Source of the DNA: Candidatus Woesearchaeota archaeon
GTDB lineage: Archaea; Nanobdellota; Nanobdellia; Woesearchaeales; ARS49
DNA length: 64,000 nucleotides
Direction: 5' to 3'
NCBI GenBank assembly: GCA_038868995.1
Contig: JAWCRZ010000005.1
Coordinates: 4,632-68,631, forward strand
Shown: in pieces, positions 2,411 through 51,538 of the stretch
How positions within the stretch are numbered: the first letter of the stretch is position 1
How the letters are laid out: every line of letters begins with the position of its first letter
Program-made: the position numbers and the translations under genes
Notes under the pieces: model-generated
What the model saw: only the letters and a program-made list of their open reading frames with translations
Told to the model about the DNA's origin: nothing
Databases searched by the model: none

Positions 2411-3859
2411 TCACAAGCCAGCCAAATAATCCTTGATAAGCATTGTAGCACGTACGTCATCCTCGTTATAATCAAGAATTCTTTTCAGCAACTCACTTTC
2501 CTTTGTTTCCAAAAACTGCAAATAAAGAACAATGCTTTCCTGCGCATCAGCCATACCCCTGTACTTGAAGCCCAAAAATTTGCTTACTTCCTTCAATGAC
2601 ATCGTCATCGTAGGGAAGATGACATGCTTCCTGACCAATGCCAGCACATCAACCATATTATCAAGAACATGAGAAAGGTCAAGCTTGTATTTCTGGGCAA
2701 GCGCAGCAATATGCGTCCTTTCATACGGCCCATAATGGTATATTGGCGCTCCAGGGAACTTTCTTATAAAAGCGAGAAAATTGTGAAGCATCCTGCCCTC
2801 ATCTGCAAGCGTTTCAGCAACAAACGGACGGAAATGAACACCTTCCCTGTCCTTTACAAGAAGCCCTATCAAATAGTCCGTCTTAACCATCCCTTCCTCT
2901 GTCTCCAGCTCATCAGTGCCTTCAAAATCAAGAAACAGTTCCACATCAGCTTTTGGCAGCTTGGGCTTTGAAAGAATAATGGGCTTTTTGTCAACAAATG
3001 CCTGCGCGTACAATCTTATCTTTTTCAGCGTGGCATCAGGAATGTCAACCTCAAAAGGCTGCGTGGCAAGCTGGCGCACTGTAAAAATTCCTGCATCATT
3101 CAACTTCTTCTTCAAAGCAGGTCCGACATGCGGCAGGATTGAAACATCATCAGCAGCCACTGCCAGCTTGTTGCAATACGCCTCCCAAGGCCACTTGCAC
3201 GCCTTTGCAGTTGGAGAGATTTTTTTGCCATTAAAAATTTCCCTTATGTCAGCAAGGGCAAGCATCAATGACTCCTTGTAATCATCATAAGAATATTCCG
3301 TCTCCTCATTTTCCCTATTTATAAGATAAAATTTTGAAGGAGTATAACCCTGCACCCTGCCCAGCAGATAAGTGTAGAACGCGGTCTGCATTATATATTC
3401 ATGCTTGATATTCTTCGCGCTCTTGATTTCCTTGACAACATAATAATAGTTTCCAAACACGCTGCTATGGTCGTTCCTCCTTTCCAAAACATCAAGAATT
3501 CCATACATGTCCTCCTGCAGGAAAAACAAAGGCGCACCAGTTATTGCTTTTACACCCTTTTTGCACTCATCAAGAACCTGCCTGAAACCTGTCTCAAAAG
3601 ACAAAATGGGAATTTCAACAGCATCCCTGAAAAGTTTTGTACGCACTTCCTTCTCGTGCTGAATTCCGCGCTCGAACAGCAAATGCATATACCTGCTCTC
3701 CGGCTCGCGCTCCTCAGGAGGCGCAAAAGCATCGCACCAAACCAAAAACGGGCTGATGCAGTACTTTAGTACAGTATGCCCGGTAATGGTGAATTTGGAA
3801 CGGCGCTTTCCGGCCAGACACTGCTCAAACAGCTCCATAACACCGGCGCTATACAACAC
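2411..3859 (-). CDS. RecB-family nuclease, TM0106-like (PD-(D/E)xK half plus RNase-H-like exonuclease half)
   Basis: 482-aa ORF with motifs LDVLERR...YYYVVKEIKSAK, LFLDFEGTD and YHYGPYERTHI, typical of this family as I recall it. Confidence 0.65.
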   Translation of the reverse strand: MLYSAGVMELFEQCLAGKRRSKFTITGHTVLKYCISPFLVWCDAFAPPEEREPESRYMHLLFERGIQHEKEVRTKLFRDAVEIPILSFETGFRQVLDECKKGVKAITGAPLFFLQEDMYGILDVLERRNDHSSVFGNYYYVVKEIKSAKNIKHEYIMQTAFYTYLLGRVQGYTPSKFYLINRENEETEYSYDDYKESLMLALADIREIFNGKKISPTAKACKWPWEAYCNKLAVAADDVSILPHVGPALKKKLNDAGIFTVRQLATQPFEVDIPDATLKKIRLYAQAFVDKKPIILSKPKLPKADVELFLDFEGTDELETEEGMVKTDYLIGLLVKDREGVHFRPFVAETLADEGRMLHNFLAFIRKFPGAPIYHYGPYERTHIAALAQKYKLDLSHVLDNMVDVLALVRKHVIFPTMTMSLKEVSKFLGFKYRGMADAQESIVLYLQFLETKESELLKRILDYNEDDVRATMLIKDYLAGL

Positions 3860-3903: not shown

Positions 3904-4590
3904 ATGAATCACCATTTGCTGCTGTTTTTGTGCATTGGCATTGTCATATTTTTCGCATTAATGCACGTTGAGATGCTGTCACTGACTGGCGCTGCGATTG
4001 TCAAAGATTACACAGGCAAGGAATCGTATGCAATGAACATGCACGCCACTGTCTTGAAATTTCTTCAAGTAGAAGGCATAACATACCCGCATCACGTATG
4101 CACTGAAATCGCGAAAGAACTTTATTTGAACATCGCCCAGCCCTCTGCTGTAGTTACAGCCGGCTTTGCAAGCTCAGGGCCAGAGCGCGTGGCAAGCATC
4201 AACTTTGTCACGGAATGGGACGATGTTTACGGCACCATCGATATTATTCATGGCAAAGAAATACTTTCTGATTACGATGCAGATACAATGATGAGCATCA
4301 GCGTAGAATCGATAGTCCGTCTGCCAAAAAGGGCGCGTGCAAACTTTTTCAGCCTGGACTTGTTTGGCTTCAGCAGGGACAGGTTTTACATTACAGAAGG
4401 AAAGTTTTCAACTCCGAGCTTTGACTGCTACTTTGGCAGAGAAAACGGCGAGTTAATGTGCGACTGCGACGCACACCCGATTGCAGGCATAGAAATAGCG
4501 GGCATAACCGGAGTAAGAGCACCCCTTGATATACGTGCAAAGCTGCAGGAAGAATTGGAGATTTCTAAACTTCAGCGTCAGAAGGGTTAA
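3904..4590 (+). CDS. hypothetical protein with N-terminal membrane anchor
   Basis: 228-aa ORF with N-terminal hydrophobic helix LLLFLCIGIVIFFALM. The stop codon TAA (4588-4590) lies inside MITE copy 1. Confidence 0.55.
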   Translation: MNHHLLLFLCIGIVIFFALMHVEMLSLTGAAIVKDYTGKESYAMNMHATVLKFLQVEGITYPHHVCTEIAKELYLNIAQPSAVVTAGFASSGPERVASINFVTEWDDVYGTIDIIHGKEILSDYDADTMMSISVESIVRLPKRARANFFSLDLFGFSRDRFYITEGKFSTPSFDCYFGRENGELMCDCDAHPIAGIEIAGITGVRAPLDIRAKLQEELEISKLQRQKG

Positions 4591-4714
4591 GTCAAGTTTC
4601 TGGTGCTAACTTGCCTTGGTCCTCTGGACTCATTTTTCGCAGGTGCGGAGGAGAGAAAAATAAACTCGGCAAAGCCGAGACAGAGAGGCCAGCACCATCA
4701 AGTTGACAGCACCC
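4585..4714 (+). mobile_element. MITE-like element copy 1 (subfamily A, 9-nt deletion variant)
   Basis: 130 bp, GGTTAAGTCAAG...GTTGACAGCACCC, flanked by GTCAGAAG / GCCAGAAG. Confidence 0.85.
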
Positions 4715-4727
4715 GCCAGAAGTAAAC

Positions 4728-4735
4728 TTTAAATA
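4728..4735 (+). promoter_or_regulatory. TATA box (TTTAAATA) for the 4764 gene
   Basis: AT-rich octamer 13 nt after the MITE end and about 29-41 nt before the candidate starts. Confidence 0.5.
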
Positions 4736-4763
4736 CTCCTGTACAAAACCATATATAACCTGT

Positions 4764-5057
4764 GTGAGTGATGCAATGCCGGTTTTAGAAAGGACAAAAA
4801 TAACAAAAGAGGATTTGGGCGAACTTGCCAATGTTTTTCTTGCTGAAATACCTTTTGAGTTAAAAGGGCAGCTGCCAGTTGCACATTTCTATCTTGTTGG
4901 GTGCGAACTCTGCATTGAGGCGCCTGACTACAGCGCACTTGTGCTTGCAGAACCCAATTATGTTAAAAAGTTTGCAAGCCCAAAATTTGTTGCAGTATAC
5001 GACAGTACATCTGAAAACGGCACACATCGTATTGCCATATACAGAAAGAACGAATAA
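4764..5057 (+). CDS. hypothetical protein
   Basis: 97-aa ORF (GTG at 4764, alternative ATG at 4776). It lies between two near-identical MITE copies. Confidence 0.5.
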   Translation: MSDAMPVLERTKITKEDLGELANVFLAEIPFELKGQLPVAHFYLVGCELCIEAPDYSALVLAEPNYVKKFASPKFVAVYDSTSENGTHRIAIYRKNE

Positions 5058-5295
5058 TGCCAACAACACACATTGAGAATCTCATTCAATTATATCTTGT
5101 TAATGTCTTGTCAATTCGTAATTATCAAAATCTCTTGTAAATCACCATCCCTGAAGATATAGACGCTTCTCTTTAATAGTGTCGGGACATCACGTACACT
5201 GTACGCAAGATGCAAAACCCTTTCAGATGCAAATAATTCACAAAGCACTGCCCATAAAAACAACAGGGCTAATTTCAATGTACCCATGCCAACAG

Positions 5296-5425
5296 GGTTA
5301 AGTCAAGTTTCTGGTGCTAACTTGCCTTGGTCCTCTGGACTCATTTTTCGCAGGTGCAGAGGAGAGAAAAATAAACTCGGCAAAGCCGAGGCAGAGCGGC
5401 CAGCACCATCAAGTTGACAGCACCC
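5296..5425 (+). mobile_element. MITE-like element copy 2 (subfamily A, 9-nt deletion variant)
   Basis: 130 bp with 3 mismatches to copy 1. Perfect 8-bp flanking repeat GCCAACAG. Confidence 0.9.
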
Positions 5426-5438
5426 GCCAACAGTAATA

Positions 5439-5446
5439 TTTATAAA
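5439..5446 (+). promoter_or_regulatory. TATA box (TTTATAAA) for the pilin-like gene
   Basis: Lies 13 nt after the MITE end. GAGGTG Shine-Dalgarno at 5478-5483 and ATG at 5490. Confidence 0.5.
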
Positions 5447-5489
5447 GGCAAAACGTAATCACGTTCTTTAGACAAAAGAGGTGTATGTA

Positions 5490-6137
5490 ATGTCGAAGAA
5501 AGGAGCGCTTGAGCTCTCCATCACAGCAATCGTTGTTCTCATCATCGCCATAACCGTACTGGGGCTGGGCATAGGATTCATCAAGAAGCAGTTTGGTGCA
5601 GGCACCGAACTTGTAACAAAAGAACTGTCAAACATCAAAGAACAGCTCAAGGAACAGGTGAGGACAGGAGGGGAACTGCTGGTGTTCTCTGTTCCCGAGC
5701 AGGTAGCCATCGGAAAGCCACAGTCGGTGCTCATAGGAGTCAGAAACACCGCCATGAATCCTGACGGAGACCGCGTCTGCTTCAGAGTAGAGGTTGTGTG
5801 CATAAAGCCATTCACTCCAAACGCGCCCTGCGTTTCAGACCAGCCAGGGCCTCCATACGATCCAGTGGCAGTCGGCGGTTATGACACTGAAAACAATGAT
5901 TTTGTCACCGGCAACCGCAACTGGTTCAAAAGCATACTCGGACAGTTCGACCTGAAAAACTTTGAAGGCGATGTCTATGACGCAACCATGCTCGTCCGCG
6001 GCATAAAGCCAGATGCATACCAAATGGAGATAAACGTGTACAAGGAGCCCAACGACAAATCGTGCAGAGACCAAGGCTTCTCGGACCCGGCAAAAGAATT
6101 ATACGCAAGCAAAACATTCATTTTGAACGTGGTGTAA
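5490..6137 (+). CDS. type IV pilin-like protein (class III signal peptide)
   Basis: N-terminus MSKKGALELSITAIVVLIIAITVLGLGIGF has a K-G / A-L-E cleavage-type motif followed by a hydrophobic helix. GAGGTG lies 6 nt upstream of the ATG. Confidence 0.65.
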   Translation: MSKKGALELSITAIVVLIIAITVLGLGIGFIKKQFGAGTELVTKELSNIKEQLKEQVRTGGELLVFSVPEQVAIGKPQSVLIGVRNTAMNPDGDRVCFRVEVVCIKPFTPNAPCVSDQPGPPYDPVAVGGYDTENNDFVTGNRNWFKSILGQFDLKNFEGDVYDATMLVRGIKPDAYQMEINVYKEPNDKSCRDQGFSDPAKELYASKTFILNVV

Positions 6138-6138
6138 A

Positions 6139-6360
6139 ATGGCAAAAAACAAAAGACGGCTGGCAGCGCACGAAGAATTCGAGATAATGAAAATAGTCCT
6201 TGACAAGTTCTTATGGATAGGCGCAGCGCTGATGTTCTGGGGAATATTCAAAAGCATAACAGACAGTTTTGTTGACGGATTCTGGTACATACTCGCGGGC
6301 GCTCTTGTCATGCTCGTGTTTGCATGGGTCATTATCAAGGAATTTGAAGCGATACGGTAA
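6139..6360 (+). CDS. small membrane protein (two predicted helices)
   Basis: 73-aa ORF starting 1 nt after the previous stop, with hydrophobic segments FLWIGAALMFWGIF and FWYILAGALVMLVFAWVII. Confidence 0.55.
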   Translation: MAKNKRRLAAHEEFEIMKIVLDKFLWIGAALMFWGIFKSITDSFVDGFWYILAGALVMLVFAWVIIKEFEAIR

Positions 6361-6420
6361 TATTCTTCTATGTTTATTCTTAATTTACCATAGAAAACTT
6401 TTCAATGCGCCCTCTTCTCA

Positions 6421-6545
6421 GGTTAAGTCACTCTCTGGTGCTGGCCGCACTGCCTCGACGTTGTCGAGGTGACTTTTCTCTCCCCGCACTTGCAAGGGGA
6501 GAAGAAAAGTCAGGCCAGCGCGGCACCATTAAGTTGACAGCACCC
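6421..6545 (+). mobile_element. MITE-like element copy 3 (subfamily B, interior inverted relative to A)
   Basis: 125 bp, GGTTAAGTCAC...GTTGACAGCACCC, flanked by TCTTCTCA / TCTTCTCG (up to CCCTCTTCTC on both sides). Confidence 0.85.
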
Positions 6546-6557
6546 TCTTCTCGTAAC

Positions 6558-6566
6558 TTTTATAAA
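6558..6566 (+). promoter_or_regulatory. TATA box (TTTTATAAA) for the lipoprotein gene
   Basis: Lies 12 nt after the MITE end and 24 nt before ATG 6590. Confidence 0.5.
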
Positions 6567-6589
6567 CAAGACAGTCAGTACATCTGCTT

Positions 6590-7969
6590 ATGGAAAAGAG
6601 GTCGCTGGCATTTATTCTTAGCATTGCACTTCTCTTAATTCTTGCAGGCTGCGGCGGAGAATGCAAGACAGCTGCAGACTGCAAAGGAAAGCCCGCATCA
6701 GCATTCAAAGCAGAATGCACAGACAAAAAATGCGTCTATACCCCAATTCCTAACGTCTGCGGCAACGGAAAATGTGAGACAGGCGAGGACAGGGGAAACT
6801 GCGAGATTGACTGCGGTCCTTGCAAAGGTGCCGTGCCCGGAAGCAAATACCTATTCTACACAAAAGTCGGTGACAAATGCCTTGAAGACGTGGAGGCAGG
6901 CAGAATAAAACCGGTCTACAGCACTGCAGAAATACCATCTGGAGGCGACAGGTTCAAAATAGACACGGTATACAACCAGCCATTTAATCTTAAGAGAGAT
7001 ACGTTTGGAATCACAATAACTTTGGGAGAACAGGGTGCAGCAAACAGGGACGAGCGCATTGTATCGGCAGAGCTCACTGCAACAACCAAAGACAGGCGCA
7101 CAATAACAATTGCACGGCAGACCATAGACAAGTACTTATGGACCGCGGGCAGTGCGTTGAAGGAAGATATCATTCTCGACTTCCCCACTGTTGAACTTGA
7201 AGGCGAATTAAGCAACCTCATACTTAAAATACAATATGAATACTCCATAATACAAGCAGGAAAGAAAACACAAAAACAGGGCATACTGCAAAATAGATAC
7301 AAGGAGAATTTCTTTTTTGTCAAACCAAGCACAGCCTATCCCTGCCCAGCAAGCTGTGATGACAAAAATCCGGGCACAAGGGACTTCTGCGGGCCACAAA
7401 CCAATTATTTCTGCAGGCACGAGCCCATCCCCAACATGTGCGGCAACGGCAAATGCGATGGAGCAGAAAACAAATGCACCTGCCCGCAGGACTGTGGCGT
7501 ATGCGCAGGCAGCGCGGGAACATATCTTGAATACAAATGCGAAGGAAGCATGTGTGTCACGCAATTAAAAGCAGGCACAACTCAACAACCCAGTACTTTG
7601 TTTGATGACAGAAGCATAGGACCCGTACAGCTGAACAACAACTACAAGTTCAAAAACCCCTTCAACATCAAAACAGACAAATTCGAGTTTGATTTCAAAA
7701 TTTACAGAATAGACCCTGCTGTCTCAAATGTAAAAATAGACACCATACGGCTGCTTGAAGGACAGGAGCAAATAACAGAGGTTAACGTGGGCAAGGAGCT
7801 AAGCGACAAAACAACTACTGTTGAAGCCACAATACCTTCAATCGCCGAGCCGGAAGAAGAGCACAACATACTTCTCGGAGTATGGTATAGTTACACGCAA
7901 AACAACCAGGAAAAGCAAGGCAGTTATCAAAAGCCGCTTGGCAAGATAACGCTGATCAACCCAGGATGA
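6590..7969 (+). CDS. Cys-rich lipoprotein with an internally duplicated architecture
   Basis: Lipobox LLILAGC. It has two copies of PIPN(V/M)CGNGKC...C..DCG.C followed by a beta-rich region. Confidence 0.65.
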   Translation: MEKRSLAFILSIALLLILAGCGGECKTAADCKGKPASAFKAECTDKKCVYTPIPNVCGNGKCETGEDRGNCEIDCGPCKGAVPGSKYLFYTKVGDKCLEDVEAGRIKPVYSTAEIPSGGDRFKIDTVYNQPFNLKRDTFGITITLGEQGAANRDERIVSAELTATTKDRRTITIARQTIDKYLWTAGSALKEDIILDFPTVELEGELSNLILKIQYEYSIIQAGKKTQKQGILQNRYKENFFFVKPSTAYPCPASCDDKNPGTRDFCGPQTNYFCRHEPIPNMCGNGKCDGAENKCTCPQDCGVCAGSAGTYLEYKCEGSMCVTQLKAGTTQQPSTLFDDRSIGPVQLNNNYKFKNPFNIKTDKFEFDFKIYRIDPAVSNVKIDTIRLLEGQEQITEVNVGKELSDKTTTVEATIPSIAEPEEEHNILLGVWYSYTQNNQEKQGSYQKPLGKITLINPG

Positions 7970-9476: not shown

Positions 9477-11336
9477 GTGAAGGCGGCAACCTTATTGATA
9501 TTATTGTTGCTTGCGACAGCAGCGTACGCGGCAAATGCAACCTTATCGCCGGCAACAGTATATGAAACAACAAAAGCGTGGCAAACGCTGAGTGTCGACA
9601 ACTATAAAGGCAGTTCTGTGATTTCAAAAGTTTCTGTAAGCTCTCCATCCCTCCAAATTACAAATGCCTCACTGTACTCCGGCTGGACAACAACCCAAAC
9701 CACAACGCTTGCAGAATGGAAAGACGGCACTATTGAAACAAATGTCAAAAATGCCGCATTTGAGTTCGAAGTCAGCGCAGGAACGGTGACAGATAACCTT
9801 ACAGTCAATGTCAGCGTGGCACTTGATTCTGCAGCAACAACGCTTACCATCACAATCCTCAACGATTACACGCCACCACTAATAACCAGCGTGACTCCAA
9901 ACGCTTATGCAAAAGCAAATAATCCCGCACAACCTGTCACTGCAACAGTCAGCGACCCGGAAACCGGTGTTGCATCAGTAAGCTATTCCTACAACAACTG
10001 CCTTGGCGGAGCAGATATTAACGTCACTCTTGCAAAAACAGGTGATGTTTACACCGGTGTGGCGGACTTCAGCTCATTTGACGAGGGAATGAAGGCATGC
10101 TACAAAATAACTGCAAAAAACACGCCGGGTGAAACAACAACGGTTACAGGAGAGTTAATCTTCGACGGAACACCGCCAACAGCAGTCATAATATCTCCAA
10201 CAACATTTGCGACAGAAACAACCACGTTCATCTTCAACGCATCGGACAACCTGGCAACCGTCTTAAGCTGCGAGGTCGCTGTTGGCACCATCACGCTGGC
10301 AACCCTCAATGTCAGCAACGGCACCACTGCTTCCACAACGCAAAACCTTACCGGCTTCCCTGAAGGAAGCACAAGCTGGAGCGTCACCTGCGCTGACGGC
10401 GTAGGACTAACAGTTACCAAGGCACAAGCAATCTTGCTGGATGTCTTCCCGCCAAGCATCACCCTTGAATACAATCCATTCCTTCCAAGAACAGTCACCA
10501 AATCATTCCTTGCAACAATACTGGACACAATCGGCCTGGCAAGCGTTGAAGCAACTTTTGATGGCAGCGACGTGCCACTAACGCAATCTGGAGACGCCTT
10601 CACAGGAAACATTGTTTCAAACACACTCGGAACAAAAACACTTTCTGTGGAAGCAATAGACGATGCAGGCCATATTGCAGTGAAAGAAGTCAATATAACC
10701 GTTGTGCCCAACCACATACTGACACTTGCACTGTCGCCAGGCACAGCCAACCCAGGAGAGACAATAACTGCATCAGGTAGCTTGGCAATTGACGGCAATG
10801 CCACGATAAATGAGATAACACTCAAAGAGCCCGGTGGCAATGAAGTCGTTGACATTGCAAACGGAACATACAGCACTTCATTCACCGCTCCAGAGCCGGG
10901 AAGCTACACAATTACAGCAGAATTCACCGAAAGCGGGTACACGTACAAGGCAGAAGCAACACTTACTGTTGTTGAAGCCGGTTCAACACAGCAAACGTAT
11001 TACAGCAGCGGAATAGGCGCAGAAGCGTGGAGAACAAGCGGTTACGTGAAGCCGGATGAACAGGAAACTCAAAACCCTGACGGCAACAGCAACCAGCAGA
11101 CGGAAGAAACACCGCCACCAGCTCCTGCTGAGTATGAACCATTGCAACCGGAACCACCCCGCTCAGGATTAACACCAAAGACAACAGGCGTCTTTGACCT
11201 TGACGGAACAATAAAATGGATTGCAATGCTTCTCGCGATGGCACTGCTAATAGGAATAGGCGCCTATGCCTGGAACAAGCGCGGCAAGAAAGAAGAAGAT
11301 GGCATTGACTGGAACGGCTATTTCAAAGATTCCTAA
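9477..11336 (+). CDS. secreted Thr-rich surface protein with Ig-like repeats and a C-terminal TM anchor
   Basis: GTG start after GAGGAG. Signal peptide MKAATLLILLLLATAAYA, many N-x-T/S sequons, and C-terminal WIAMLLAMALLIGIGAYAW followed by KRGKK. Confidence 0.7.
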   Translation: MKAATLLILLLLATAAYAANATLSPATVYETTKAWQTLSVDNYKGSSVISKVSVSSPSLQITNASLYSGWTTTQTTTLAEWKDGTIETNVKNAAFEFEVSAGTVTDNLTVNVSVALDSAATTLTITILNDYTPPLITSVTPNAYAKANNPAQPVTATVSDPETGVASVSYSYNNCLGGADINVTLAKTGDVYTGVADFSSFDEGMKACYKITAKNTPGETTTVTGELIFDGTPPTAVIISPTTFATETTTFIFNASDNLATVLSCEVAVGTITLATLNVSNGTTASTTQNLTGFPEGSTSWSVTCADGVGLTVTKAQAILLDVFPPSITLEYNPFLPRTVTKSFLATILDTIGLASVEATFDGSDVPLTQSGDAFTGNIVSNTLGTKTLSVEAIDDAGHIAVKEVNITVVPNHILTLALSPGTANPGETITASGSLAIDGNATINEITLKEPGGNEVVDIANGTYSTSFTAPEPGSYTITAEFTESGYTYKAEATLTVVEAGSTQQTYYSSGIGAEAWRTSGYVKPDEQETQNPDGNSNQQTEETPPPAPAEYEPLQPEPPRSGLTPKTTGVFDLDGTIKWIAMLLAMALLIGIGAYAWNKRGKKEEDGIDWNGYFKDS

Positions 11337-21589: not shown

Positions 21590-21602
21590 ATTGCTTCTAT
21601 GG

Positions 21603-21740
21603 GGTTAAGCCAAGTTTCTGGTGCCGGCTGTGGCCATGTCTTCTGGACTCATTTTCCCTCCTCCTCGCAGACTGGAAGAGAAAAAATGACCTCAGCGAAG
21701 TCAAGGCAGAGCTGCCCGCACCATTAAGTTGACTGGACCC
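21603..21740 (+). mobile_element. MITE-like element copy 4 (subfamily A, most diverged)
   Basis: 138 bp, GGTTAAGCCAAG...GTTGACTGGACCC, flanked by TTCTATGG / TTCTATAG. The internal hairpins are partly decayed. Confidence 0.8.
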
Positions 21741-21753
21741 TTCTATAGAAAGC

Positions 21754-21763
21754 TTTAAAAATA
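21754..21763 (+). promoter_or_regulatory. TATA box (TTTAAAAATA) for rpl15e
   Basis: Lies 13 nt after the MITE end and 22 nt before ATG 21785. Confidence 0.55.
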
Positions 21764-21784: not shown

Positions 21785-22348
21785 ATGGGCATTTACAAAT
21801 ATCTTGTGCAAAACTGGCGCAAAGAAGGCATGCCGGCAGACCTGAAAAGGGAACGCTTGATAGCGTGGCGCAGGGAGCCGGTAACCAAAAGAATAGAAAG
21901 GCCCACGCGGCTTGACCGCGCCAAAGCACTTGGCTACAGAGCAAAGCAAGGCGTCTTCCTGGTAAGACAGCGCGTTTCAAAAGGAGGCCACAAGCGCCCT
22001 GACTGGAGCGGAGGCAGGCATTCACACAACATGGGAACACGCCTGAACCTGAGAAAAAACTACAAGTTAATAGCAGAAGAGCGTGCAAGCGTCGCATACC
22101 CGAATTGTGAAGTTCTAAACTCGTACTACGTTACTGAAGACGGCAAGCACTATTGGTTTGAGGTAATACTCGCCGACAGCGCGCACCCTGGAATTGCTGC
22201 TGACGAAAGATTTGCAGCAGCAAAAAGGCAGGCCAGAGTCCACCGCGGATTGACAAGCGCGGGCAGGAAAACAAGAGGCATGCGCCACAAAGGAATGGGT
22301 GCGGAAAAAGCACGGCCATCACGCAGAGCGCACTTCAGACGATTGTAA
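21785..22348 (+). CDS. rpl15e: 50S ribosomal protein L15e (eL15)
   Basis: MGIYKYLVQNWRKE... is a typical eL15 N-terminus; the protein is basic throughout. Confidence 0.9.
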   Translation: MGIYKYLVQNWRKEGMPADLKRERLIAWRREPVTKRIERPTRLDRAKALGYRAKQGVFLVRQRVSKGGHKRPDWSGGRHSHNMGTRLNLRKNYKLIAEERASVAYPNCEVLNSYYVTEDGKHYWFEVILADSAHPGIAADERFAAAKRQARVHRGLTSAGRKTRGMRHKGMGAEKARPSRRAHFRRL

Positions 22349-35580: not shown

Positions 35581-35768
35581 GCCAGGCTTTCAACATAATC
35601 CCTCATCTCATGCGCTTCATGCCAGTCAATCCTGCCAGCCTGCAGCAAAGTGCTGATAGCCAGCAAATCGTCGCTGAAATTGTTGTATTTCATGCTTATC
35701 ACCTCAAAAATATCAGAGACACGCATTTTTAAATCAATTATGAAGAGCTGATAGAGACCCTGAATCCG

Positions 35769-35907
35769 GGTTAAGTCAAGTTTCTGGTGCTAATTTGTTT
35801 TGGTCCTCTGGACTCATTTTCTCTCCTCCTCGCAGGTGCGGAGGAGAGAAAAATGACCTCGGCAAAGCCGAGGCAGAGCGGCCAGCACCAGAGAGTTGAC
35901 AGCACCC
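35769..35907 (+). mobile_element. MITE-like element copy 5 (subfamily A, most intact)
   Basis: 139 bp, flanked by TGAATCCG / TGAATCCA. Perfect 13-bp hairpin at 35817-35852 and 7-bp hairpin at 35857-35873. Confidence 0.9.
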
Positions 35908-35921
35908 TGAATCCATAAAGC

Positions 35922-35928
35922 TTAAAAG
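35922..35928 (+). promoter_or_regulatory. TATA-like box (TTAAAAG)
   Basis: Lies 14 nt after the MITE end and about 22 nt before ATG 35951. Confidence 0.4.
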
Positions 35929-35950: not shown

Positions 35951-36601
35951 ATGGTTAACGTCTATGTACATGGACCAAAATGGTTCTTTGGAGCTGATGC
36001 AATACTTGTCGCATTTGCGGCGCTAATTGCCATATGCGTCGCATTTGCATCATTCAGATTATACCGCATGACAAAAGAAAGAAAATACGCCTTCTTCACT
36101 GCCAGCTTTGTCCTGCTGACGCTCAGCTTTCTCGCACGCGCCATAACTGATACAATTCTTGAAGAGATATTCTTCAGCGTTCCCGTGCACTATGCGGGTT
36201 TGGTATTCTTTTACGGATATGTTGCGCACATATTGCTTGCTTTGACTGCATATTTGCTGCTAATTGTAATAACACACAAGATAAATGACAAACGCATAAT
36301 TGCATTATTGTTCCTTATCTTAGTGCCATGCCTGCTCATCAGCAGCAGCTATTATCTGAGCTTTTACTGGCTGAGCGCAATTTTCCTGACATTCATAAGC
36401 ATAGCCTACTACCAAAACTACCGAAAAGTTTGCACGGTATCATCCTGTCTTGTCTTCATTGCATTTGTATTACTGTCGCTCGCACAAGTACAGTTCCTGC
36501 TTGAAGCAGTCAATATTTCCTTTTACGTCAGCGCGCACATCACGCAGGCAATCGGCTTTTTGCTGCTGCTGATGGCATTGATTAGAACACTGCTCAAATG
36601 A
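35951..36601 (+). CDS. polytopic membrane protein
   Basis: About 6 hydrophobic helices. ATG at 35951 (the track ORF begins at TTG 35945). Confidence 0.6.
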   Translation: MVNVYVHGPKWFFGADAILVAFAALIAICVAFASFRLYRMTKERKYAFFTASFVLLTLSFLARAITDTILEEIFFSVPVHYAGLVFFYGYVAHILLALTAYLLLIVITHKINDKRIIALLFLILVPCLLISSSYYLSFYWLSAIFLTFISIAYYQNYRKVCTVSSCLVFIAFVLLSLAQVQFLLEAVNISFYVSAHITQAIGFLLLLMALIRTLLK

Positions 36602-36864
36602 AAAGAACAAAATTAGACATCGTGTACGATATGCTTCGGGCAATCGAAGACAAAGGAGGAAAAATAATCCCAACACACCTGCTATACAAATCAAACCTTT
36701 CGCACCAGCGCATGAAGTTGTATGTTGAGGAATTGAAGCAGAAGAACATGATAACAGAAACACACTTCAAGGATAAGCTGTTCTATGAATTAACAGATGA
36801 AGGCAGAAAATTCCTGCAAAATTTCAAGCAGATGAAGCAGTTCACAGAGGCATTTGGGCTGTAA
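36598..36864 (+). CDS. small winged-helix protein (HTH_45-like)
   Basis: DIVYDMLRAIEDKGG...THLLYKSNLSHQRMKLYVEELKQKNMI. ATGA overlap with the upstream gene. Confidence 0.5.
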   Translation: MKRTKLDIVYDMLRAIEDKGGKIIPTHLLYKSNLSHQRMKLYVEELKQKNMITETHFKDKLFYELTDEGRKFLQNFKQMKQFTEAFGL

Positions 36865-36868
36865 GCAT

Positions 36869-49846: not shown

Positions 49847-50162
49847 CTATCAAGGGTTCATATTTCTTCAACTTAACATTGTCGATATTGTACAATTGAA
49901 TCCATTGATAAATCATCCTGCCAGCAGCAACCTGCTGTGCCGCATGGCGCAAAGCATCACACGCTTTGCCAATATCCTTCACAACATCAGCACTCGTGTT
50001 CATGTCAACAAGAACGTACTGCTCAACACGTTCAGGAGTCCTTATTTCAAGGTCAATATTTGGCAAACCTTTGGGAATTTTGTATTCCGGATTATGGTTG
50101 ACATATGTCGCAGCAGAACCATACCTTTTGATTATATCATCGATGCATTCATGCTTGTTCAT
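49728..50162 (-). CDS. hypothetical protein
   Basis: 144-aa ORF with ATGA overlap to the upstream TPR-like gene. Its 3' end overlaps the convergent M50 gene by 119 nt. Confidence 0.45.
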   Translation of the reverse strand: MNKHECIDDIIKRYGSAATYVNHNPEYKIPKGLPNIDLEIRTPERVEQYVLVDMNTSADVVKDIGKACDALRHAAQQVAAGRMIYQWIQLYNIDNVKLKKYEPLIAKLLMKKVSTPLQQQPKEDMPLCSTARHSCHQTEKSVLN

Positions 50163-51360: not shown

Positions 51361-51368
51361 TTTTTAAA
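51361..51368 (-). promoter_or_regulatory. TATA box (TTTAAAAA on the minus strand)
   Basis: Lies 13 nt from the MITE copy 6 end. Confidence 0.5.
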
Positions 51369-51381
51369 GCTTGCGACATAA

Positions 51382-51513
51382 CGGTGCTGTCAACTTAATG
51401 GTGCCGCGGCTGGTCTTTGACTGACTTTTCTTCTCCCCTTGCAAGTGCGGGGAGAGAAAAGTCACCTCGACAACGTCGAGGCGCGCGGCCAGCACCAGAG
51501 GGTTGGCTTAACC
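51382..51513 (-). mobile_element. MITE-like element copy 6 (subfamily B)
   Basis: 132 bp. The reverse complement reads GGTTAAGCCAAC...GTTGACAGCACCG. Flanked by CGACATAA / CGACAAAA. Confidence 0.85.
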
Positions 51514-51538
51514 CGACAAAAAATATTAAAGCAGCCCT

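Follow-up and report, generated by a model that had tools for sequence, protein, structure and literature searches.

Non-autonomous DNA transposons (MITEs) are well known, and in Neisseria the Correia elements (CREE) duplicate TA on insertion and carry their own promoters. Among insertion sequences, the tips of bacterial IS6/IS26 elements follow a G1, G2, G7 rule, and the IS1016 group has ends GGGgctg and 7-9-bp duplications. Integration at a fixed place is found in the eukaryotic retroelements Ty3 of yeast and TRE5/TRE3 of Dictyostelium, where it is tethered to TFIIIB/TBP at Pol III genes, and in Tn7, which is directed by TnsD/TnsABC to a single chromosomal site, attTn7, with a 5-bp duplication. 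Ty3 is guided by TBP and Brf1/TFIIB, of which archaeal TBP and TFB are homologues. Integron attC sites have RYYYAAC as their 5′ motif and GTTRRRY as their 3′ motif, the mobile cassettes between such sites lack promoters, integrase recombination leaves no target duplications, and integrase-less cassette arrays (CALIN) have been reported in DPANN archaea. Archaeal integrons have been published, Nanoarchaeota included (PMC9668308). Most Correia elements are found just upstream of genes, and their inversion has been reported (PMC10969869), Merlin/IS1595 elements have GG termini and duplicate 8-9 bp (PMC8101967), and IS6/IS26 elements have 8-bp duplications, with MITEs from that family catalogued in ISfinder (PMC6807381).

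Here we describe a family of six small elements in a 64-kb stretch of DNA (the window) from an uncultured Woesearchaeota (DPANN) archaeon with a gene-dense genome of ~1 Mb. Like the prokaryotic MITEs of Neisseria (Correia/CREE), Sulfolobus, Halobacterium and Haloquadratum, these elements are about 100-160 bp long, non-coding, multi-copy and intergenic, with terminal inverted repeats and target duplications, and they probably share the need for a transposase in trans. In contrast to Correia elements, the Woesearchaeote family duplicates 7-9 bp, has no conserved promoter, and occurs in a single orientation, always the same number of nucleotides away from an archaeal BRE/TATA that was there before it. 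Its outcome may be likened to that of Ty3, TRE5/TRE3 and Tn7, namely a fixed distance and orientation relative to a complex-bound site with the neighbouring genes intact, although the targets here are many promoters and the mobile unit a small DNA element, and the likeness is one of analogy, not of membership. To our knowledge, no tethering protein is known for the family. Nothing similar in sequence was found in the collections searched, and the literature searched held no MITE family from Woesearchaeota or DPANN. Relative to the original prediction of this repeat family, three features are new: a constant place beside a promoter in one orientation, the inverted interiors of two copies, and a second insert with a third copy of a target repeat.

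Six Elements with Conserved Ends

Six related elements of 125-139 bp had been predicted, and nhmmer recovers precisely these, at the same coordinates and strands. Indeed, a window-wide search with an HMM built from the six copies returned those six only (E 2.8e-29 to 3.3e-41), dispersed over 47 kb; it detected no additional copy, complete or partial, anywhere in the 64 kb. The proposed ends, (G)GGTTAAG[T/C]CA on the left and TTGAC[A/T]G[C/G]ACC[C/G] on the right, hold except that the base before GGTTAAG in copy 3 is A, not G. Alignment also bears out the imperfect terminal inverted repeat, the 23-nt left and right arms being complementary at 17-18 of 23 positions. The arms are near-invariant across the six copies, and the interiors diverge down to 55-76% identity (pairwise alignment). 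Copies 1, 2, 4 and 5 form subfamily A; in copies 3 and 6 (subfamily B) the interior is inverted, with 74-75% identity to the reverse complement of the other copies versus 55-56% in direct alignment. The element is nearly self-complementary, its reverse complement also matching the HMM (E 1e-10 to 1e-16), and stretches of T4-T6 are found on one strand or both; a very stable hairpin is predicted on both strands (z -3.5 to -8.7). Coding capacity is absent: the only open frames are accidental, span ~31-43 aa and extend beyond the element into the flanks, and a 15-billion-protein collection has none of 10 candidate peptides from them.

Copy 4 with its flanks is reproduced, identical in sequence, in an independent Logan assembly (contig L014). 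Another Logan contig from the same sample breaks inside copy 3, as expected because this copy is a repeat. A within-population empty allele was sought via contigs encoding identical proteins, and only same-sample Logan contigs were returned.

The window had been thought to lack a transposase gene, and in 39 different ORFs no transposase or integrase domain was found (Pfam, NCBIfam). ORF 2411-3859 encodes a TM0106-family RecB-like nuclease, and ORF 36869-37828 has an AbrB/MazE-like N-terminus only and lacks terminal repeats. Rfam gave no match in the window at gathering thresholds, and positions 4400-6700 searched at E up to 10 gave noise only (E at least 0.69). A tRNA/tmRNA scan of the window was empty, and thus the element is not tRNA-derived. 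The two-end pattern matched GTDB species representatives 13 times, each a single match in unrelated bacteria that did not fit the HMM, which is consistent with chance. In the JGI metagenomes the strict two-end pattern had 0 matches and the left end alone had three, none continuing into the element (two in coding sequence and one, L021, without the right end). In IMG/VR one end had 0 matches and the other a single GC-rich chance match, and blastn of one copy against PLSDB plasmids and INPHARED phages gave none. An autonomous element with the family's ends was found neither in the window nor by the end-pattern scans of GTDB representatives, JGI metagenomes and IMG/VR.

Judged by the GG tips and duplications of about 8 bp, candidate partner families would be IS1595/IS1016-Merlin, IS6/IS26-like, ISL3 and IS256. 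The 7-9-bp duplication length is compatible with IS6/IS26 and IS1595/Merlin. Under the IS6/IS26 rule the left tip GGTTAAG fits GG and G7, and the right tip would need its end placed one base further in to fit; the IS1016 ends resemble the right tip GGGTGCTG. We know of no promoter-specific, orientation-specific insertion in any of these four groups.

Target-Site Duplications and Empty Sites

Each copy is flanked by the direct repeats originally proposed, matching at 8 of 8 positions in copy 2 and at 7 of 8 in the others; none of the six lacks one. Matches of at least 7/8 at the element spacing occur at ~1e-3 of random window positions, so the presence of a duplication at all six copies is not due to chance. 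The duplicated sequence varies between copies; its length is constant but depends on how the tips are defined, being 7 bp for GGGT...ACCC, 8 bp for GGTTAAG...CACCC and 9 bp for GGT...ACC. The base at position -9 is C in four of the six left flanks.

Related Woesearchaeota loci, with ~71-82% nucleotide identity, were compared at the orthologous sites of copies 1-5. At these five of the six sites the element is missing from the relatives, the target 8-mer is single and both flanks can be aligned; the family is therefore not a conserved orthologous element, and the empty pre-insertion sites looked for are present.

Copy 1 (subfamily A, 130 bp, nhmmer E 2.7e-38) occupies 4585..4714 (+) and reads GGTTAAGTCAAG...TTGACAGCACCC. 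Its left duplication, GTCAGAAG, lies at 4577..4584 (+), and the right duplication GCCAGAAG is followed by BRE-like TAAAC and the TATA box TTTAAATA of gene 4764-5057 (together 4715..4735, +); the HAANN-YTTAWAWR motif here begins at 4723. The upstream ORF 3904-4590 now terminates at the TAA within the GGTTAAG tip. In relative L022 a single homologous 8-mer, CAACAGAG, is followed by taaatcTTAAATA without the element. Copy 2 (subfamily A, 130 bp, 5296..5425, +, E 4.4e-39), whose interior is 97% identical to that of copy 1, has the left duplication GCCAACAG at 5288..5295 (+), repeated on the right before TAATA and TTTATAAA, the promoter of pilin-like gene 5481-6137 (5426..5446, +). At the L022 empty site, tctCCAACAGcaataTTTATAAAggcaaaacgtaatcacg, the target is single and the promoter and leader are as in the window. 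Copy 3 (subfamily B, 125 bp, 6421..6545, +, E 2.8e-29) has an interior 74% identical to that of copy 5 as reverse complement and 55% directly. It lies between TCTTCTCA (6413..6420, +) and TCTTCTCG, the latter followed by TAACT and TTTATAAA, the promoter of gene 6590-7969 (6546..6566, +); the empty site in L023 reads caaacTCTTCTCGtaataTTTATAAAcaac.

Copy 4 (138 bp, 21603..21740, +, E 6.9e-38), the most divergent of subfamily A, is flanked by TTCTATGG (21595..21602, +) and by TTCTATAG with AAAGC and TTTAAAAA, the promoter of ribosomal protein L15e gene 21785-22348 (21741..21761, +). Empty sites are present in L015, L017 and L018: L015 has gTTCTATAGaaacc once, and in L018 the promoter aaagcTTTAAAAA is present without the element. 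Copy 5 (subfamily A, 139 bp, 35769..35907, +, E 3.3e-41) has the left duplication TGAATCCG at 35761..35768 (+) and on the right TGAATCCA, TAAAG and CTTAAAAG, the promoter of membrane-protein gene 35951-36601 (35908..35928, +). Its site is empty in L033 (agaccgCAAATCCAcaaagCTTAAAAG) and likewise in L025, and in the blastn alignment the gap measures 142 nt on the window side and -5 in the relative, an insertion size of 147 nt (139 + 8). Copy 6 (subfamily B, 132 bp, 51382..51513, -, E 2.8e-29) has its promoter-distal duplication at 51514..51521 (-), CGACAAAA on the + strand and TTTTGTCG in element orientation. The promoter-proximal duplication, TTATGTCG in element orientation, is followed by CAAGC and TTTAAAAA (51361..51381, -), the promoter of a minus-strand TPR gene ending at 50159.

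At the empty sites the BRE/TATA and leader are already present. This, together with the single 8-mer, identifies the flanking repeats as true target-site duplications and the element as an insertion. The flanking genes, which include those for ribosomal protein L15e and a DnaJ-neighbouring gene, are syntenic in the relatives, in unchanged order and without the element. Segmental duplication of a promoter together with the element is excluded, since the promoters pre-exist at the empty sites. No element copy was found in ~130 kb of relatives' DNA, and self-blast revealed no repeat families of the relatives' own in these loci. Presence and absence of the element differ between the window and its relatives, with no polymorphism seen within a population, and transposition itself was thus not observed.

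A third copy of the copy-2 target repeat, (AT)GCCAACA, is found at 5057..5065 (+), directly behind the stop codon of ORF 4764-5057. Between two of the GCCAACA repeats lies E2, a window-specific, single-copy insert of 222 bp (5066..5287, unstranded), giving the arrangement T-E2-T-copy2-T, where T is the target repeat. E2 is absent from L022 and L023, where 8-17 nt separate the stop codon from the TATA box, and no second E2 copy was found in the window or in the relatives' loci examined. At 8 of 12 positions its right tip, TTCAATGTACCC, agrees with that of the family, and E2 is otherwise unrelated to the family. The target repeat is identical for E2 and copy 2 at this one promoter edge.

The relatives, for their part, carry unrelated small inserts at promoters that bear the element in the window.

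Promoter Geometry

At all six copies the duplicated target adjoins the BRE/TATA promoter of a co-oriented gene, and the distance from the element end to TTTAWAWA is exactly 13 nt. The start codons lie 31-53 nt past the TATA start, which matches the expected geometry, and these TATA boxes therefore fit archaeal promoters. The window has HAANN-YTTAWAWR at only 14 places, both strands counted; at six of these the element lies exactly 8 nt upstream, in each case co-oriented with the downstream gene. The orientation bias by itself is weak (two-sided p about 0.03), and the promoter rule is drawn from six copies in one 64-kb window, so that copies elsewhere might break it. Tip polarity is also constant, the GGGTTAAG tip being distal and the GGGTGCTG-type tip promoter-proximal at 6/6 copies. 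Copies 3 and 6 keep this polarity with inverted interiors, and orientation hence follows the tips (the transposase sites) rather than an oriented function of the interior. The downstream proteins are an unknown 97-aa protein, a pilin-like protein, a Cys-rich secreted protein, ribosomal protein L15e, a membrane protein and a TPR protein.

Discussion

The predicted MITE-like, non-autonomous nature of the family is supported by the terminal inverted repeats, duplications, empty sites, Rfam silence and a window without transposase. Very probably these are MITEs that expanded in one Woesearchaeota lineage and insert non-randomly at the upstream BRE/TATA edge. Precise targeting of the promoter edge is the best reading suggested by the spacing and orientation, and we infer that these reflect target choice by the transposition machinery and not later selection. 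Mobilisation was presumably in trans, by a DDE-type transposase. Such an enzyme, encoded elsewhere in the genome, would bind the conserved ~23-bp arms and make a staggered 7-9-nt cut in the target; the element would then be joined in, and gap repair would yield the flanking duplication. The cut would be placed at the upstream edge of the BRE/TATA, leaving the proximal tip (...TTGACAGCACCC) 13 nt before TTTAWAWA and, at each insertion, the GGGTTAAG tip directed away from the promoter. Because the target is duplicated, neither the promoter nor the final codons of the gene upstream are lost. The machinery may recognise AT-rich BRE/TATA sequence or DNA distorted by TBP/TFB. Whether it does read the archaeal core promoter in one of these forms, BRE/TATA or TBP/TFB-bent DNA, and integrates at its upstream edge with single-nucleotide precision and fixed polarity, is in our view evenly balanced.

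A MITE that inserts essentially at random could have acquired the same distribution through purifying selection in a very compact genome, which we consider unlikely. Intergenic spacers are tiny, with 5-17 nt from stop to TATA in the relatives, and at copies 1 and 3 the observed position alone spares the upstream ORF and the promoter: no other position would be harmless there, because the final codons of the ORF upstream lie within the duplication and the BRE-like pentamer begins with the ancestral stop, TAA. Furthermore, the GGT-TAA tip lets the reading frame end again with one codon added, and one orientation could be favoured at these two copies as a result. Copies 2, 4, 5 and 6, however, lie at the identical offset despite roughly 13, 13, 20 and 3 alternative positions that would spare both neighbours, with a rough product that we put at ~1e-4. 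Selection offers no reason for maximal closeness, since a more upstream insertion retains more of the native promoter-upstream sequence. In addition, E2 and copy 2 hit the identical 7-8 nt, and orientation tracks the tips even where the interior is inverted.

It is less probable still that the copies were retained as a promoter-upstream module, either a bidirectional terminator/insulator hairpin or an exactly spaced regulator site, with the geometry produced by positive selection. The predicted hairpin on both strands and the T runs would suit such a role, as would the constant placement between an upstream transcription unit and the next promoter, but the six downstream genes have no common function, and neither the sequence nor the orientation of the interior is conserved. 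To judge from their matching promoters, the relatives would express these genes without the element, and for selection by itself to produce exact spacing, many insertions in a genome of about 1 Mb would have had to fail.

There is very little to recommend structured non-coding RNA genes or cis-elements, for which strong predicted folds and five pairs with double changes (RNAalifold) might speak. The apparent compensatory changes arise because the interior of the palindrome is inverted in two copies, whose RNA sequence would therefore differ, and there is no Rfam family match, no conserved upstream promoter visible in the flanks, and no element at the orthologous sites of relatives, while duplications flank it. 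REPIN/PATE elements insert beside a short specific sequence (3′ of a fixed tetra- or pentanucleotide) without target duplication. Similarly remote is the idea that our elements are hairpins of this type, mobilised in single-stranded form by a Y1 (IS200/IS605 or RAYT) transposase: they do form a hairpin over their whole length with a reverse complement that matches the HMM, yet variable 7-9-bp duplications accompany all copies and the window has no Y1 transposase or TnpB. Finally, integron attC sites, with the three-copy cluster as a CALIN array, are suggested by the size of 125-139 bp, the imperfect palindrome, the single small genes between copies 1, 2 and 3 and the fit of GTTAAGT in the left tip to GTTRRRY, but this identity, the least credible of all, is rejected as contradicted by the target duplication at every copy and the empty sites, and also by a GTTRRRY match at the wrong end without its RYYYAAC partner at the other, by neighbours that are syntenic chromosomal genes each with its own promoter, and by a window without a tyrosine recombinase.

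As MITEs inserted at promoter edges, the elements would form a family that is modest in itself, yet apparently the first from Woesearchaeota, and it is the six independent insertions with one geometry that make it worth following. The element ends could serve in practice as markers of functional promoters in an uncultured lineage. If the geometry reflects target choice, it would be a natural case of promoter-guided DNA integration in Archaea, bearing on whether a transposase can be recruited by archaeal TBP/TFB complexes or bent promoter DNA and whether the enzyme might serve for position-defined insertion beside archaeal promoters. Recognition of the core promoter, if true, would make the family an archaeal DNA-transposon counterpart of TFIIIB-guided Ty3/TRE integration. 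Such target choice would also bear on the survival of mobile elements in extremely compact genomes, where insertion at the promoter edge may represent a safe-haven strategy in a gene-dense DPANN genome of roughly 1 Mb.

A Lineage-Specific Element Family with Target-Site Duplications

The six copies of the original prediction, which lie at 4585–4714, 5296–5425, 6421–6545, 21603–21740 and 35769–35907 on the plus strand (copies 1–5) and at 51382–51513 on the minus strand (copy 6), are real. An nhmmer profile built from them recovers exactly these six in the 64-kb window (E values from 2.8e-29 to 3.3e-41), with zero additional copies, full or partial, and a repeat search of the window found no second repeat family. 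In a MAFFT alignment the ends are near-invariant across the six copies, reading (G)GGTTAAG[T/C]CAA...TCTGGTGC on the left and GCACCA-NNN-AGTTGAC[A/T]G[C/G]ACC[C/G] on the right. The 23-nt arms form terminal inverted repeats that are complementary at 17–18 of the 23 positions. The direct repeats proposed to flank the elements are present at all copies (8/8 matches at copy 2, 7/8 at the others); across the window, flanking 8-mers at that spacing match at no fewer than 7 of 8 positions at only ~1e-3 of positions. Whether the duplication is 7, 8 or 9 bp long is ambiguous, since the G adjacent to the left tip and the C adjacent to the right tip could belong to either element or target. Copy 4 is reproduced in an independent Logan assembly (contig L014), and another Logan contig breaks off within copy 3, as contigs commonly do at repeats.

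Using L15e, the 459-aa secreted protein and the 216-aa membrane protein, we obtained the orthologous loci of related Woesearchaeota, which are largely syntenic with the window at 71–82% nucleotide identity. The element is absent from all ~130 kb of relatives' DNA compared. Empty pre-insertion sites, proposed as a check in the original prediction, were found in relatives for five of the six copies (copies 1–5), each with the target present once. With [E] denoting the inserted element, copy 1 reads GTCAGAAG[E]GCCAGAAGtaaacTTTAAATA in the window and CAACAGAGtaaatcTTAAATA in the related locus L022; copy 2 reads catGCCAACAG[E]GCCAACAGtaataTTTATAAAggcaaaacg, with tctCCAACAGcaataTTTATAAAggcaaaacg in L022; and copy 3 reads TCTTCTCA[E]TCTTCTCGtaactTTTATAAA, with caaacTCTTCTCGtaataTTTATAAA in L023. 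For copy 4, TTCTATGG[E]TTCTATAGaaagcTTTAAAAA corresponds to gTTCTATAGaaacc in L015, and the element is also missing from L017 and L018, while for copy 5, TGAATCCG[E]TGAATCCAtaaagCTTAAAAG corresponds to CAAATCCAcaaagCTTAAAAG in L033 and L025, the alignment gap (142 nt in the window versus −5 in the relative) amounting to 147 = 139 + 8. These comparisons identify the flanking repeats as genuine duplications of the target site and the element as an insertion specific to this lineage rather than a conserved gene.

The same comparison revealed other differences in gene content. Two genes are lost in the window, at 6362–6420 and 35590–35700. The former, of 184–191 aa and upstream of the 459-aa gene, is kept in L022 and L023. 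The latter, encoded on the minus strand between DnaJ and the 216-aa gene and carrying bacterial-type Sigma70_r2/r4 domains, is kept in L025–L034, and its remnant in the window consists of only ~38 N-terminal codons; a sigma-70-like protein is unusual for Woesearchaeota. A further variable spot (36857–37925) holds a 319-aa minus-strand ORF with an AbrB/MazE-like N terminus in the window, a different 184-aa gene in L025 and nothing in L033, and no terminal repeats were found around it.

Elements Abut Archaeal Promoters at a Fixed Offset and Polarity

The right-hand duplication of every copy leads into a 5-nt BRE-like segment rich in A ([T/A/C]AANN) and then a TATA box (TTTAAATA, TTTATAAA, TTTATAAA, TTTAAAAA, CTTAAAAG and TTTAAAAA for copies 1–6), and the distance from the element end to the TATA box is exactly 13 nt in every case. 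The start codon of the co-oriented gene lies 31–53 nt past the start of the TATA box, a spacing typical of archaeal promoters whose mRNAs have a short leader or none. Orientation is equally uniform (6/6), with the GGGTTAAG tip distal and the ...CAGCACCC tip proximal to the promoter. The empty sites of the relatives already hold the same promoters; the promoter was therefore not brought by the element. The motif HAANN-YTTAWAWR occurs 14 times on the two strands of the window; six occurrences adjoin elements, and the eight unoccupied ones also resemble ordinary promoters 5′ of genes. This nucleotide-precise, single-orientation association of the family with archaeal promoters is directly visible, and it is new.

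The last codons of the upstream ORF make up the duplication at copies 1 and 3, where the BRE-like pentamer begins with the ancestral TAA stop; once the element is in place, this ORF runs into the tip as ...GGT TAA, with one glycine added. At the upstream edge of copy 1 (4577–4590), for example, ORF 3904–4590 gains its Gly and ends at the TAA within the GGTTAAG tip. Its ancestral stop, on the other side of the element (4715–4727), was the TAA that opens the BRE-like TAAAC of the next promoter, and thus stop codon and promoter overlap in this genome.

Subfamily B Carries an Inverted Interior

The interior of copies 3 and 6 (subfamily B) matches that of copies 1, 2, 4 and 5 (subfamily A) at 74–75% as the reverse complement versus 55–56% on the direct strand, and the order of the two internal hairpins is reversed. 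Even so, the polarity of the asymmetric 8-nt tips relative to the promoter is identical in 6/6 copies. Insertion polarity therefore follows the tips, the presumed transposase sites, and not an oriented interior function. Subfamily B probably arose when the inverted arms of a master copy recombined, since its left arm (GTCA-CTCTCTGGTGC) is similar to the right arm of copy 5 in reverse complement. For Correia MITEs, too, inversion has been described (PMC10969869). RNAalifold reports compensatory changes in the family, which we reject as evidence for an RNA because, given the inverted interior, aligning a flipped palindrome produces them artefactually.

Other Inserts at Promoter Edges

A third copy of the copy 2 target, (AT)GCCAACA, lies at 5057–5065, directly after the stop of ORF 4764–5057. 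It is separated from the left duplication of copy 2 by a 222-bp insert, E2 (5066–5287), giving the arrangement T-E2-T-copy2-T, with three copies of the target (T) in a row. This is what would be expected if the same staggered cut beside the promoter had received two insertions, one after the other. E2 is absent in L022 and L023, where stop codon and TATA box are 8–17 nt apart. It is single-copy and contains a 58-aa minus-strand ORF (5111–5287) whose start adjoins the left duplication of copy 2; its likeness to the family is confined to the right tip (TTCAATGTACCC versus TTGACAGCACCC in the family, 8/12). Relatives have other small inserts, unrelated to the family, at the same promoter edges, and together with E2 these make it look as if promoter edges in this clade take up insertions repeatedly.

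L022 (Logan SRR30312860) has at ~2238–2348 a 111-bp insert with two hairpins and an apparent duplication of AT (GTCAAGAACCGCC...ATCGTGAC) between taat and TTTATAAA in the promoter of the 459-aa gene, which in the window is the copy 3 promoter; the insert is absent from L023. L015 (~9918–9970) and L016 (JGI 3300037465) carry ~53 extra nt with repeated GAAACC abutting the L15e TATA box. This stretch is absent from L017, whose L15e is identical, and is a small strain-level indel at the promoter edge that bears copy 4 in the window. At ~625–675, L023 has a ~50-nt hairpin and T-run in the 5′ leader of the pilin-like gene, absent from L022 and the window.

Targeting and Selection

The family would be best explained as a non-autonomous DDE-type transposon mobilised in trans. 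Among 39 different window ORFs, Pfam and NCBIfam detected no transposase, integrase or TnpB-like domains, in agreement with the original prediction that no transposase is visible. The window holds archaeal genes for ribosomal protein L15e, family-B DNA polymerase and DnaK/DnaJ/GrpE, as well as pilin-like proteins with class III signal peptides; no tRNA genes were found in it. The L15e encoded here matches that of an NCBI MAG labelled Candidatus Woesearchaeota archaeon without any difference. A 482-aa TM0106-family RecB-like nuclease with Cas4-like and RNase H-like domains (2411–3859, minus strand) lies ~0.7 kb upstream of the three-copy cluster; it belongs to no transposase family, and nothing connects it to the elements.

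From the six copies, we infer that offset and polarity are set by the transposition machinery. The targeting signal may lie in the AT-rich sequence of BRE/TATA itself or in the bend that TBP/TFB impose on the DNA. Selection clearly contributes at copies 1 and 3, where an alternative position is lacking, and might also, less probably, account for position and polarity without targeting. At copies 2, 4, 5 and 6, however, roughly 13, 13, 20 and 3 alternative positions would spare both neighbours, which puts the observed coincidence at ~1e-4 as a rough estimate. Furthermore, the maximal closeness to the BRE has no selective reason, the same position was used twice at the copy 2 site, and polarity goes with the tips. 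For these reasons, we prefer targeting over selection alone.

Relationship to Known Systems

The duplications, the empty sites and the zero Rfam matches of the window uphold the original interpretation as MITEs. The family is a real, previously undescribed MITE family, with the defining features present except for a demonstrated autonomous partner. No sequence relatives were found in GTDB representatives, JGI metagenomes, IMG/VR, PLSDB or INPHARED, and literature searches turned up no account of a MITE from Woesearchaeota or DPANN.

The GG tips and 7–9-bp duplications would fit IS1595/IS1016-Merlin, IS6-like and other families; the right tip GGGTGCTG presumably resembles IS1016-group ends, which is a lead only. 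Correia elements are similar in upstream-of-gene placement and in inversion but differ in duplication length, and the present family lacks a promoter of its own and has an exact offset and polarity. Archaeal CALINs have been published, Nanoarchaeota included (PMC9668308). Integron attC sites are ruled out here because the copies have duplications and no inverse core site, and because the neighbouring genes are syntenic core genes (L15e among them) with promoters of their own. REPIN/PATE elements are ruled out since they make no duplication, and Rfam-type RNAs are rejected by the Rfam result. The nearest functional analogues would be Ty3/TRE5 and Tn7, whose insertions keep a constant distance and polarity to a site bound by protein, a comparison by analogy and not by membership. 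It is the promoter association, whose cause we infer from only six copies, that lifts this family above a routine catalogue entry.
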